In this document: positions 1,562-5,014 of the stretch, piece after piece
Position numbering within the stretch: the first letter of the stretch is position 1
Layout of the letters: each line of letters begins with the position of its first letter
IMG/VR virus record: IMGVR_UViG_2713896784_000026
DNA from: a virus
Lineage: Duplodnaviria > Heunggongvirae > Uroviricota > Caudoviricetes
DNA length: 7,004 nt
Strand: one strand, 5' to 3'
The notes under the pieces: model-generated
What the model was told of the DNA's origin: nothing
What the model saw: only the letters and a program-made list of their open reading frames with translations
Databases searched by the model: none
Program-made: the position numbers and the translations under genes

Positions 1562-1750
1562 TTATCCAGCCGGTATTTCGTTATTCAGGTACAGCGATAC
1601 TTTGTTTAACGGGAGACATTCACCGGAAATTTTTTGCTCGTCTCTTGCCTGATGGCAGGATTCTTTACTGGCATAAATTCCGGTAATCACATTCTGTGGC
1701 TCACCTGTTATAAGAAAAACCGTCATCATCAGTGCAAACGCTGAACTCAC
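1562..1750 (-). CDS. Hypothetical small protein (62 aa as tracked; GTG start, or ~55 aa from the internal ATG pair)
   Basis: ORF-track entry. Its GTG at 1750..1748 overlaps the TGA of the upstream gene (GTGA), suggesting translational coupling. Same strand as recE and lying between recE and the other early-left genes. No recognisable motif. Confidence 0.4.
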   Translation of the reverse strand: MSSAFALMMTVFLITGEPQNVITGIYASKESCHQARDEQKISGECLPLNKVSLYLNNEIPAG

Positions 1751-1935
1751 TGCTGCCCTCCGAAAATGCCAAGTTCAAGAAGGGCAATTCTGGAGAGTAT
1801 GGAATTATCATTGAGAAGATAAGGCTCATATTTTCTCATCCTGATGGCGTCTTCAGTAAACTCCCGGTTACTGAGCAGAATACCAATATTAAAACACCCT
1901 TCAGACGTATTAACGTTTGGTAGTGACGTTTCCAT
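1747..1935 (-). CDS. Hypothetical small protein (62 aa)
   Basis: ATG at 1935..1933 preceded by GAGGA with an 8-nt spacer (minus-strand reading TTGAGGACGCGATAATG). The competing plus-strand ORF 1732..1923 is the exact antisense codon register and has a GTG start with no SD. No recognisable motif. Confidence 0.45.
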   Translation of the reverse strand: METSLPNVNTSEGCFNIGILLSNREFTEDAIRMRKYEPYLLNDNSILSRIALLELGIFGGQQ

Positions 1936-2098: not shown

Positions 2099-2146
2099 CT
2101 TTAAAAAGGGCGGCAGAGCAGTCACGGAGTAAAACTGATACCGCCA

Positions 2147-2200
2147 NNNNNNNNNNNNNNNNNNNNNNNNNNNNNNNNNNNNNNNNNNNNNNNNNNNNNN
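2147..2200. other. Run of 54 ambiguous bases (N); masked or unsequenced segment
   Basis: Read directly. Lies in the ORF-poor segment between 1936 and 2419. Confidence 1.
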
Positions 2201-2638: not shown

Positions 2639-2730
2639 GTCGGCTCCTTGTGGTTAGCGTTGCCTGCTTTTAACCACGTCAGGCGAGGTGGTATCCTCTG
2701 AGGGGTCTGTTACTCGAGAGGAAATTGGTT

Positions 2731-2931
2731 ATGAATACAATCAAGTTTTCTTGCCCAGAATGTGGTGGCGAAGTCTTTGACACATCCTTTAAGCCGCAGG
2801 GCTCTGACAGTTTCGCGGGAGCCATCTGCAAAAATTGTGGTCACCTTGTAACTGAAGATGAGTCCTCGCAGTTCGATGACGAAATCGTTGACAATATCTT
2901 CGGTGCACTCACCAGAGACTTTCTGAAGTAA
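2731..2931 (+). CDS. Small zinc-ribbon protein (66 aa), C-P-x-C-G ... C-x-x-C-G with an acidic C-terminal tail
   Basis: ATG at 2731 with GAGG 9 nt upstream (2718..2721). Two canonical zinc knuckles, CPECGG at residues 8-13 and CKNCGH at 33-38, then the acidic tail TEDESSQFDDEIVDNIF. The track ORF starts 6 nt earlier at TTG. The minus-strand ORF 2710..3066 is the exact antisense register, which is why it also looks open. Confidence 0.6.
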   Translation: MNTIKFSCPECGGEVFDTSFKPQGSDSFAGAICKNCGHLVTEDESSQFDDEIVDNIFGALTRDFLK

Positions 2932-3243: not shown

Positions 3244-3290
3244 ATTTTTAGTTTAATAAACATTAAACTTAAGTCAAGTAAAAACTAAAC
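3244..3290 (-). promoter_or_regulatory. pL/oL-like leftward promoter with operator-like sites: -35 TTGACT (3277..3272), 16-bp spacer, -10 TAAACT (3255..3250)
   Basis: The 18-bp site GTTTAATAAACATTAAAC (3251..3268) has GTTTA/TAAAC inverted arms and closely resembles the sites in the 4226..4322 region. A partial second site lies at 3273..3290. Hexamers were read by eye; no TSS data. Confidence 0.4.
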
Positions 3291-3300
3291 CGCGGGACAT

Positions 3301-3339
3301 AACAAACACAACGCTTTTGATAAAGTCGTTGCGGTTGTT
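3301..3339 (-). terminator. Imperfect hairpin just downstream of the parE stop; possible weak terminator of the regulator-antitoxin-toxin operon
   Basis: Minus-strand RNA AACAACCGCAACG - 13-nt loop - CGUUGUGUUUGUU pairs at 12 of 13 positions (one G-U wobble, one mismatch). The U-tract is not immediately adjacent, hence low confidence. Confidence 0.25.
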
Positions 3340-3361
3340 ATGTTTCTATTGGTAGTGAAAG

Positions 3362-3640
3362 TTAGGGAAACTGGCGTCTTGCGTGGATCACGTTTACTAC
3401 TTCAACGCTTGATGTTGTTACGCGGTATAGAATTATATAGTTAGGGTGGGCTACAATCTCACGCAAGCCAGGTACTCTGTCGCTTGGTGGGTATAAATAC
3501 GGATGTTCGGATAACGGCAGCACACAACCCCTTAATCGCTGCCATAAGCGTTCAGCCGCATCTATGTCGAAACGAGCAATATAACTAGTTATATCATCTA
3601 GGTCGGTATCTGCGCTTTCAAGCCATAACACGGGTAACAT
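3362..3640 (-). CDS. parE2: ParE-family type II toxin (92 aa; ParE2-like)
   Basis: The translation from the internal ATG at 3640..3638 (MLPVLWLESADTDLDDITSYIARFDIDAAERLWQRL...YIILYRVTTSSVEVVNVIHARRQFP) has the RelE/ParE-fold pattern. That ATG lies 1 nt after the TAA of the upstream antitoxin gene, indicating coupling. The 124-aa track ORF from 3736 would overlap the antitoxin gene out of frame and is rejected. Confidence 0.85.
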   Translation of the reverse strand: MLPVLWLESADTDLDDITSYIARFDIDAAERLWQRLRGCVLPLSEHPYLYPPSDRVPGLREIVAHPNYIILYRVTTSSVEVVNVIHARRQFP

Positions 3641-3641
3641 T

Positions 3642-3833
3642 TTACTGCTTGCTCCGTTCCTTGCGCATCTTAGCAAAGCGTTCTGCCATTCTGCGCTCAA
3701 CTTCGTCATGGGGAATTGCTGGGCGCGGATCTGCAAGGCTCGTTGCTACTTTCGCACGCAGCCATTCGTTGTAACTGTTTTCTTGTTCAATGGTTTCAAA
3801 TTCAGAAACCATTGGTGAAAGGGCTCTATTCAT
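3642..3833 (-). CDS. paaA2: Small highly charged antitoxin (63 aa), PaaA2-like partner of ParE
   Basis: ATG at 3833..3831 preceded by a strong SD (minus-strand reading CCGGAGGAAACATG). The product MNRALSPMVSEFETIEQENSYNEWLRAKVATSLADPRPAIPHDEVERRMAERFAKMRKERSKQ is 63 aa, matching the length I recall for PaaA2. Sits immediately upstream of parE. The track's longer 81-aa form lacks an SD. Confidence 0.75.
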   Translation of the reverse strand: MNRALSPMVSEFETIEQENSYNEWLRAKVATSLADPRPAIPHDEVERRMAERFAKMRKERSKQ

Positions 3834-3853
3834 GTTTCCTCCGGTTTTATAAC

Positions 3854-4225
3854 TCAGGCGCGGCGGCATTTTTGCGCCGCAATCCATCTCGCTATGAGAT
3901 CTTCCATTGATTCTTTTTTCTGCTTTAACTCGCTGATTATCTGGCGTTGCTCATCCTCAGGGAAGGCTGAAAAAATCTGCAATAATTCCAGTTGATTAGA
4001 CGTTAACCCTGCATGTGGTGGAGAACCCCCCGGTTGTTCTGCGTATTCCGCATCCAGATACCCTTCCGGCATCCCGTATGTTTGCTCTATTCTTCTGGCA
4101 GCCTTTTCTCCAAACGAGGCTCTCCCACTCATTAGTTGAGATAGGTAGCTCTTCTCTTTGGGTGGCAGAGTTTTATCTTTAAACCACTCCTTGAGACGTA
4201 AACGGCGAATTTCTTTTTTTTGCAT
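3854..4225 (-). CDS. paaR2: HTH (Cro/CI-type) transcriptional regulator, PaaR2-like; occupies the prophage repressor (CI-equivalent) position and is first gene of the TA operon
   Basis: N-terminal HTH (KSYLSQLMSGRASFGEKAARRIEQTYGMPEGYLD). The C-terminal part resembles DicA-type repressors (SNQLELLQIFSAFPEDEQRQIISEL). Divergent from the Cro-like gene. Start placed at ATG 4225..4223 (123 aa): the GTG at 4288 used by the track would extend the protein across the operator region. There is no SD before 4225, consistent with a leaderless mRNA. Confidence 0.7.
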   Translation of the reverse strand: MQKKEIRRLRLKEWFKDKTLPPKEKSYLSQLMSGRASFGEKAARRIEQTYGMPEGYLDAEYAEQPGGSPPHAGLTSNQLELLQIFSAFPEDEQRQIISELKQKKESMEDLIARWIAAQKCRRA

Positions 4226-4322
4226 GTGGTAATTATCTTTAGTAATCACTAAACAAGCAAATACTTGACTTAATGGTTTATTAAACACTAAACTCGCAAA
4301 AAAACACTAAACCGAGGAAGGT
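4226..4322. promoter_or_regulatory. Divergent promoter/operator region between the repressor-like gene and the Cro-like gene
   Basis: Three 18-bp sites with conserved right half ...CACTAAAC: 4237..4254 CTTTAGTAATCACTAAAC, 4276..4293 GTTTATTAAACACTAAAC, 4295..4312 (right half only). Rightward promoter: -35 TTGACT 4265..4270, -10 TAAACT 4289..4294, then SD GAGGA 4314..4318 and ATG 4323. Leftward promoter: -35 TTGCTT (complement of 4255..4260), 17-bp spacer, -10 GATAAT (complement of 4232..4237), which puts the start about at the ATG at 4225. Confidence 0.55.
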
Positions 4323-4625
4323 ATGACATTAAAAGAGTTTATTAAATCATTAAGGGTTGGTGATGCTAAGAAATTCGCGGCCAGACTTGGTGTATCGCCA
4401 TCTTACTTATCGCAAATGGCGTCTGGACGAACAGCTATATCTCCAACCCGCGCCCTTATGATCGAATCTGCGACGGAAGGCCAAGTAAGTAGGGCGGAGC
4501 TACGACCCCATGATTGGGAGCTTATTTGGCCTGAGTATGCGAGCGGCATTCGTTTGGGGCAAACACATGTAGTTCATGCTGAAGGTGATTGTAGTGCATG
4601 CTTATCTGATGGAGTTGATTCATGA
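4323..4625 (+). CDS. ydaS: Cro-like HTH protein, YdaS family (100 aa)
   Basis: SD GAGGA 5 nt upstream of ATG 4323. HTH with recognition-helix motif SPSYLSQMASGR, close to that of the divergent regulator. Its TGA overlaps the next ATG (ATGA at 4622..4625). Confidence 0.8.
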   Translation: MTLKEFIKSLRVGDAKKFAARLGVSPSYLSQMASGRTAISPTRALMIESATEGQVSRAELRPHDWELIWPEYASGIRLGQTHVVHAEGDCSACLSDGVDS

Positions 4626-5014
4626 AAATCAAGCATGAACACATCCGCATGGCGATGAATGTCTGGGCGCATCCGGACGGCGAAAAAGTACCGGCTGCGA
4701 AAATTACCAAAGCGTATTTCGAGCNNNNNNNNNNNNNNNNNNNNNNNNNNNNNNNNNNNNNNNNNNNNNNNNNNGATAAAGACACCCCTGATGCTGTTGA
4801 AAAAATGCAGGCTCTGTTACCGGCGATCGAAAAGGCGATGCCGCCTTTGCTGGTGGCCCGTATGCGCAGCCACAGTTCTGAATATTACCGTGAGATCGTC
4901 GAACGGAGGGATCGGCTGGTGAAGGATGTCGATGATTTTGTTGCGTCAGCGGTTGTTTTGTATGACCAGATGAATCGCGGCGGCCCGGCAGGGAATGCTG
5001 TGGTGATGCACTAA
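4622..5014 (+). CDS. ydaT: YdaT-like protein (130 codons; proposed CII-like regulator / toxic when overexpressed); internal 50 bases are masked N
   Basis: MKIKHEHIRMAMNVWAHPDGEKVPAAKITKAYFE...; translationally coupled to the ydaS-like gene. The frame is continuous across the N run only if the masked length is true to the original. Confidence 0.65.
   Translation: MKIKHEHIRMAMNVWAHPDGEKVPAAKITKAYFEXXXXXXXXXXXXXXXXXDKDTPDAVEKMQALLPAIEKAMPPLLVARMRSHSSEYYREIVERRDRLVKDVDDFVASAVVLYDQMNRGGPAGNAVVMH
4725..4774. other. Run of 50 ambiguous bases (N) inside the ydaT-like gene
   Basis: Read directly. Confidence 1.

Follow-up and report, generated by a model that had tools for sequence, protein, structure and literature searches.

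The closest described system is the immunity region of CP-933P, a cryptic lambdoid prophage of E. coli O157:H7 that corresponds to Sp12 in strain Sakai. Its repressor gene paaR2 and the maintenance promoter PRM933P have been characterized by Jurenas et al. (mBio 2021, PMC8630535). In that work the transcription start of PRM933P was determined by 5' RACE on EDL933 RNA (TAP-treated, five clones) and was found to be the predicted translation start of paaR2. The intergenic region between paaR2 and ydaS measures 97 bp and, according to the authors, contains four evenly spaced 18-bp palindromes with the half-site GTTTAGTAA as well as overlapping direct repeats. IR1 lies over PRM933P and IR3 over PR933P, and the left half of IR4 is poorly conserved (PMC8630535). 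DNase I footprints of PaaR2 and YdaS extend over approximately 78 bp and 65 bp of the 97-bp region, respectively, and cover both promoters. It was observed that PRM933P is activated about 4-fold at low PaaR2, that induced PaaR2 or YdaS represses both promoters (up to 45-fold), and that YdaS occupies PRM933P first (PMC8630535). The same study reported the activity and the 5' RACE start of PR933P, the octamerisation of PaaR2, a PL-type promoter to the left with similar operators that is repressed by PaaR2 and YdaS, and a PRE-type promoter between ydaS and ydaT that is switched on by YdaT. PaaR2 was described as a protein without a peptidase motif, and the authors suggested that the toxin-antitoxin pair of the operon had been inserted into a pre-existing switch (PMC8630535).

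The stretch of DNA analysed here (the window, 7,004 nucleotides) represents the CP-933P/Sp12 immunity region of E. coli O157:H7. Many chromosomes of this serotype match positions 3600..4700 with 100% identity, and all 20 primers tested from Table S3 of PMC8630535 match the window exactly. Primers FL1 and FL2 bound 4226..4322, a 97-bp intergenic region in agreement with the published value, and the PRM933P-gfp reporter fragment of the same paper corresponds to 4225..4298. The paaR2/PRM933P sequence is the same as that described for CP-933P, and nothing differs in the region discussed here. The gene order places the locus in the paaR2-paaA2-parE2 type, as the regulator gene is followed in the same orientation by genes for a PaaA2-type antitoxin and a ParE-type toxin and stands beside the divergent ydaS-ydaT pair. 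Pfam searches identified PaaA2 (PF21217, E = 1.7e-19), ParE_toxin (PF05016, E = 4.8e-16), and YdaS (PF15943, 3.3e-12) in the window. The RefSeq context consists of a 123-aa hypothetical protein, a RelB-type antitoxin, and a RelE/ParE toxin, with a transcriptional regulator and a YdaT-family protein on the opposite strand. The features are as follows.

3244..3361, minus strand: PL933P fragment, located with the F-PL and R-PL primers, with OL-type operators at 3251..3268 and 3273..3290.
3362..3640, minus strand: parE2 toxin gene, third in the operon (Pfam ParE_toxin; RefSeq CDS).
3642..3833, minus strand: paaA2 antitoxin gene, second in the operon (Pfam PaaA2 PF21217; RefSeq CDS).
3854..4225, minus strand: paaR2 coding sequence for a CI-like repressor (123 aa plus stop), an open reading frame with the same start as RefSeq WP_001169686.1.
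4232..4237, minus strand: -10 element of PRM933P, GATAAT, ending 6 nt before the ATG; the aligned block reads CA(A/C)AAT in 17 relatives.
4237..4254, no strand assigned: operator CTTTAGTAATCACTAAAC, an 18-bp palindrome that extends over the entire PRM933P spacer into the first base of the -10 element and fits IR1.
4255..4260, minus strand: -35 element of PRM933P, TTGCTT, three of six matches to TTGACA, with a 17-nt spacer; nearly all of the 18 aligned sequences have TTGCTT or TTGATT.
4265..4294, plus strand: PR933P, consisting of TTGACT, 18 nt, and TAAACT (9/12 consensus).
4276..4293, no strand assigned: second, well-conserved palindrome GTTTATTAAACACTAAAC, which overlaps the PR933P spacer and -10 element and fits IR3.
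4302..4312, no strand assigned: AAACACTAAAC, a further (third) copy of the half-site, close to where PR933P transcription is expected to begin.
4323..4625, plus strand: ydaS, the Cro analogue (Pfam YdaS_toxin and HTH_3), divergent and 97 bp from the paaR2 ATG.
4531..4650, minus strand: fragment carrying the YdaT-activated leftward promoter PRE933P, to which the F-PRE and R-PRE primers map.
4622..5014, plus strand: ydaT, the CII analogue (RefSeq 'toxin YdaT family protein'), with the R-YdaT primer at 5014..4997 and an N run at 4725..4774 inside the gene.

The N runs at 2147..2200 and 4725..4774 are masks that do not keep the true length, with 54 and 50 N in place of 136 and 83 bases in NZ_AP018488.1. 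Coordinates and ORF lengths that span a mask are therefore not real; ydaT, for example, has 130 codons in the window and 141 in RefSeq. The left part of the window encodes a DicB homologue (1747..1935, minus strand), an ECs_2282-family zinc-binding protein (2725..2931, plus strand), and the DicF antisense RNA (2108..2146, minus strand; Rfam RF00039, 51.8 bits, model positions 14-52 of 52), the 5' part of which falls in the adjoining N run. Window 25-mers taken at positions 100, 1000, and 1700 had no exact match in a 9.1-kb stretch of strain PV15-279 (L001), whose record shows a truncated exonuclease and an IS3 transposase in the corresponding part. Up to about position 2100, the left arm of the window may thus differ among O157 strains, or it may run past the 9.1-kb stretch compared.

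Read on the minus strand, the maintenance promoter consists of TTGCTT (4260..4255), the 17-nt spacer GTTTAGTGATTACTAAA (4254..4238), GATAAT (4237..4232), and TACCAC (4231..4226), which directly precedes the ATG (4225..4223). The sequence-only reading of this DNA had proposed a TTGCTT-17-GATAAT promoter ending 6 nt before ATG 4225, and direct reading confirmed all of its coordinates and sequences. The usual transcription start, about 7 nt after the last base of the -10 element, falls on the A of ATG 4225. None of the motifs GGAG, GAGG, AGGA, and AAGG occurs in the 20 nt before this ATG, and the absence of a Shine-Dalgarno sequence, also claimed earlier, is thereby confirmed. The further claim that transcription begins at about the A of the start codon is borne out by the published 5' RACE start, which makes 4225 both the first base of paaR2 and the mapped +1 (PMC8630535). 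This promoter was identified with the PRM933P of the paper by means of the +1, the primers, and the published description.

As a promoter sequence, PRM933P is not outstanding. It scores 8/12 against the consensus and was not called in a consensus scan that required at least 4/6 matches per hexamer because its -35 element matches at only three of six positions; it was therefore re-scored with relaxed thresholds. With these, 40 sites of the same quality were found on both strands of the window (about one per 350 nt per strand). Since such sites are common, a promoter match by itself is weak evidence. Among the 250 ATGs of the window, ATG 4225 is the sole one with a -10 element of this kind ending 5-7 nt upstream, and the informative part of the evidence is the position of the promoter relative to the ATG. 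The 5' end of the paaR2 mRNA is A-rich and unstructured. Its first 35 nt are unpaired in the minimum-energy structure (-3.4 kcal/mol, z = +1.49), and 194 of 200 shuffled sequences folded at least as well.

The protein data point to the same start codon. The frame that follows the ATG reads MQKKEIRRLRLKEWF... and ends with the stop at 3854, and residues 1-66 of PaaR2 are identical to the structures 7nkv, 8c3k, and 8c3l of the PDB ('Phage repressor protein CI'). The 123-aa product of the ORF from ATG 4225 with a His6 tag has a computed mass of 15,081.0 Da, and the version from GTG 4288 has a mass of 17,531.9 Da. The published intact mass of PaaR2-His is 15,081 Da and its N-terminus was determined by Edman degradation as MQKKE (PMC8630535). 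The equality of computed and published mass links the PaaR2 of the paper to this window, and the measured value fits the ATG start and not the GTG form. Start mapping and N-terminal sequencing, which the sequence-only reading had named as checks, are thus already published for this exact sequence, with the +1 at the ATG. The protein used for N-terminal sequencing and mass determination was expressed from a pBAD construct designed so that its transcript starts at the ATG (PMC8630535). For this purpose, primer F-1-PaaR2, which begins with ATGCAAAAAAAAG and corresponds to 4225..4198 of the minus strand, sets the mapped +1 at the transcription start of araBAD. On Western blots, PaaR2 made from the native promoter gave a band of similar size to that of the ATG-started protein (PMC8630535). 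The evidence from the native promoter therefore consists of the 5' RACE on five clones and this band of similar size. The in-frame start codons upstream are GTG 4288 (144 aa) and GTG 4249 (131 aa), the latter of which is absent from the earlier reading; both were rejected as paaR2 starts on the basis of the mass and of upstream stops in the relatives.

No Pfam family matched PaaR2 at E <= 0.01, including any S24/LexA-type autocleavage domain. The C-terminus resembles DicA (NCBIfam) below the threshold, with 28 bits against a cut-off of 101. Given the lack of a Pfam domain and the sub-threshold DicA match, PaaR2 can be placed in no sequence family but its own. PaaR2 is thus a CI in function that stands outside the CI/LexA (S24 peptidase) protein family.

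The operator at 4237..4254 differs from the palindrome GTTTAGTN4ACTAAAC at one position. Allowing up to three mismatches, four sites were found in the window against 0.28 expected, and none of 200 shuffled sequences reached four. These sites form two clusters, at 4237..4293 and at 3251..3290. The half-site copy at 4302..4312 is probably the IR4 of the paper. The claim that an operator lies exactly in the promoter's spacer can be confirmed, with the addition that it also takes in the first base of the -10 element. The autoregulation suggested from this position has likewise been demonstrated, by the PaaR2 footprint on PRM933P and by the activation at low and repression at higher PaaR2 summarized above (PMC8630535). 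Relative to the PRM933P start, the spacer palindrome sits at about -13 to -30. We infer from this position, and from YdaS binding PRM933P first, that the site would behave like OR3 of lambda, a repression site, and activation of PRM933P would presumably proceed via sites farther upstream. The -35 elements of PR933P and PRM933P are arranged back to back, 4 bp apart. The palindromes of PL933P are separated from the OR cluster by about 1 kb; since PaaR2 is reported to form octamers, a lambda-like looping between OL and OR could occur. In PMC9986795, the YdaT recognition site is given as TTGATTN6AATCAA. An exact copy, TTGATTCATGAAAATCAA, is found within the PRE933P fragment at 4615..4632, where it extends across the stop codon of ydaS and the start codon of ydaT. 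A search with up to two mismatches gave one match in the window, and as at least one match also arose in 82 of 200 shuffled sequences, the site is not rare by chance and its support comes from its position.

These observations are very probably explained as follows: paaR2 encodes the CI-like repressor of CP-933P, is expressed as a leaderless mRNA from PRM933P, and is autoregulated through the operator in the spacer. As the first gene of the paaR2-paaA2-parE2 operon, it is transcribed from the A of ATG 4225, and its mRNA thus carries neither a 5' untranslated region nor a Shine-Dalgarno sequence. Ribosomes would then initiate on the 5'-terminal AUG, presumably by the 70S/5'-AUG pathway, as for cI of lambda from PRM; this direct initiation is proposed by analogy with lambda cI and fits the AUG start and the unstructured, A-rich 5' end. 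PaaR2 and YdaS bind to the repeated sites of the GTTTAGTAA type across the 97-bp divergent region. When the palindrome at 4237..4254 is occupied, RNA polymerase would be blocked at PRM933P and paaR2 would be switched off, so that the operator in the spacer would mediate negative autoregulation at high PaaR2 as well as repression by YdaS. At low concentration, PaaR2 bound farther upstream would repress PR933P and stimulate PRM933P. A transcript from PRE933P would provide a second, leadered paaR2 mRNA, and the leaderless mRNA is thus not the only possible source of PaaR2.

The last point can be taken further by assuming that most PaaR2 comes from the leadered PRE933P transcript, as cI of lambda does from PRE at establishment, and that PRM933P is a minor source. 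PRE933P is a real promoter, YdaT raises it to about the basal level of PRM933P (PMC8630535), and an exact YdaT site lies at 4615..4632. However, PRE933P is undetectable without YdaT, and since PaaR2 represses ydaS-ydaT, PRM933P would be the active source in the PaaR2-on state. Furthermore, the 5' RACE on EDL933 RNA recovered the end that coincides with the ATG (PMC8630535), and on a PRE transcript the same ATG would lack a Shine-Dalgarno sequence as well, so that translation there is not obviously better. The PRE route adds to the leaderless route and does not replace it, and a dominant contribution of PRE933P is considered improbable.

A different start codon would also change the picture. 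If paaR2 were translated from GTG 4288 or GTG 4249 on a leadered mRNA, the promoter match at the ATG would be coincidental, and the open frame up to GTG 4288, a weak GAG 4 nt before this codon, and the frequency of promoter sites that score 8/12 (about one per 350 nt per strand) could be cited in its favour. This is very improbable in view of the 5' RACE start at the ATG, the size of the native-promoter protein, which is similar to that of the ATG-started protein (PMC8630535), and the mass of 17,532 Da expected for a His-tagged 144-aa form, compared with the 15,081 Da found. The N-terminal extension would moreover be encoded by operator and PR promoter DNA, it is not conserved as a protein (relatives often have in-frame stops 1-8 codons upstream and no alternative start), and RefSeq also places the start at the ATG. 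That promoter, operator, and ATG are a chance juxtaposition without function is the least probable explanation and hardly credible. The weak -35 element, the failure of the scanner to call PRM933P, and the number of promoter-like sites called in 3800..4700 (two, close to the shuffle mean of 1.8) would be compatible with it, but it is refuted by the published reporter data, in which fragment 4225..4298 drove gfp leftward and responded to PaaR2 and YdaS (PMC8630535). It is also at odds with the strong over-representation of operator palindromes and with the conservation of the hexamers and of their distance from the ATG in at least 12 genera, in which the 6 nt between them vary.

This conservation became apparent when the locus was compared with its relatives. 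A scan of one genome per species yielded 27 loci (L002-L028) encoding PaaR2 relatives with 43-76% protein identity, and the upstream regions of 17 of these were aligned with the window (18 sequences from at least 12 genera). The mean column identity of the upstream region is 77%. Among the conserved elements are the PR -35 (AGTCAA, this strand), the PRM -35, the operator GTTTAG...ACTAA, the -10 element (CAAAAT, CACAAT, or GATAAT), and the ATG. The leaderless layout (-35, 17 nt, -10, 5-7 nt, and an invariant ATG) was counted in 18 of the 27 relatives, the aligned set itself comprising the window and 17 relatives. Between the -10 element and the ATG, the sequence differs nearly everywhere and the length is 6 nt in 16 of the 18 sequences (L023 has 5 nt and L028 has 7 nt). 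A spacer that is fixed in length but free in sequence, and that has no room for a ribosome binding site, is as expected from selection for a transcription start at the A of the AUG. Purine-rich runs are present in L018, L020, and L025, where they abut the ATG with a spacing of 0-1 nt. In L012 (Raoultella terrigena NBRC 14941), L016, L017 (Yersinia aleksiciae 159), L019, L023, and L024, an in-frame stop lies 1-8 codons upstream of the ATG and no alternative start is available. As judged from these alignments, the relatives agree independently with ATG 4225 as the paaR2 start. The layout was found in Yersinia, Erwinia, Raoultella, Enterobacter, Morganella, and Arsenophonus, among others, and also in assemblies labelled as Betaproteobacteria (Massilia, Mycoavidus, and Glomeribacter). 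On balance, the evidence leans towards the leaderless layout being conserved and constrained in length in a widespread immunity switch of the PaaR2/YdaS type, and not specific to CP-933P.

A variant layout was observed in eight Photorhabdus/Xenorhabdus loci (L002-L008 and L015). They keep TTGCTT-17-CA(A/C)AAT, and their ATG lies about 50-85 nt farther downstream, behind an AT-rich stretch without a well-placed Shine-Dalgarno sequence. Here, a repressor mRNA with a leader of roughly 50 nt or more is expected, provided that no second promoter stands directly at the ATG (in Photorhabdus, a TATAAA ends 4 nt before it), and the arrangement looks like a leaderless-to-leadered conversion. Since the same promoter is followed by a more distant ATG in these loci, the family does not strictly require the leaderless layout. 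In the ninth Photorhabdus/Xenorhabdus locus (L014), the switch was not found within the 160 nt examined upstream, and this region contains tandem copies of a roughly 23-nt unit. The switch is also absent from a Neisseriaceae assembly (L027).

A divergent ydaS-like gene accompanies the repressor gene in 22 of the 27 relatives, and paaA2/parE2 was found within 1.5 kb of the repressor in none of them. The absence of paaA2/parE2 alongside a common ydaS supports the authors' suggestion of a toxin-antitoxin insertion into a pre-existing switch; from these gene neighbourhoods, the pair looks like cargo acquired in the E. coli/O157 lineage by a PaaR2/YdaS switch that is itself widespread. Within E. 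coli, the switch (4120..4330) was present in 613 of 5,426 complete genomes, in 586 of the 613 with at least 99% identity, and since it is near-invariant, a comparison within the species carries no signal. Its carriers include non-O157 lineages such as ST131, O121, and O80:H26. The phage collection contained one full-length relative, Escherichia phage Evi, which at 98.5% identity is too close to inform.

In comparison with phage lambda, the claim that paaR2 is arranged like cI behind pRM holds true, as the locus functions as a PRM/PR switch of the lambda type whose repressor gene is leaderless. Like in lambda, the repressor gene points leftward and its transcript begins at the A of the AUG. A weak, repressor-stimulated maintenance promoter stands back to back with a stronger rightward promoter, and the maintenance promoter contains an operator that the Cro analogue occupies first and through which negative autoregulation is exerted. 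Both systems also have further operators at PL, a CII-type activator acting on a PRE-type promoter, and a repressor that forms octamers. On the other hand, PaaR2, with its 123 aa, has neither a Pfam hit nor an S24/LexA-type domain and is not SOS-inducible; the three operators OR1-OR3 are replaced by the paper's four 18-bp palindromes and overlapping direct repeats; and the paaR2 operon carries a ParE-type toxin-antitoxin pair at the place of rexAB. The DicA/DicC pair of the Qin prophage of E. coli K-12 occupies the same position in a defective lambdoid prophage, and, like in Qin, genes of the dicB, DicF, and ydfC type are located to the left. DicA shows weak C-terminal similarity to PaaR2, the N-terminal DNA-binding domain of which is not recognisably DicA-like by sequence.

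The leaderless expression of paaR2 is thus correct and is already known in every particular proposed, having been published in 2021. The point that a second lambdoid repressor gene with this layout makes leaderless expression a recurring design of maintenance promoters was likewise made then, with experiments. The present analysis illustrates that a real, experimentally verified leaderless gene can be recovered from sequence alone, and its increment lies in the conservation of the geometry across genera and in the apparently leadered variant of Photorhabdus and Xenorhabdus. If correct, the leaderless arrangement poses a further question, namely how ribosomes read the AUG on the PRE-derived leadered transcript, which offers no Shine-Dalgarno sequence. 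The geometry kept over many genera argues for selection on the distance between the -10 element and the AUG, and if the starts of the relatives are as predicted, the family would represent a natural series for the interconversion of leaderless and leadered forms of one gene.
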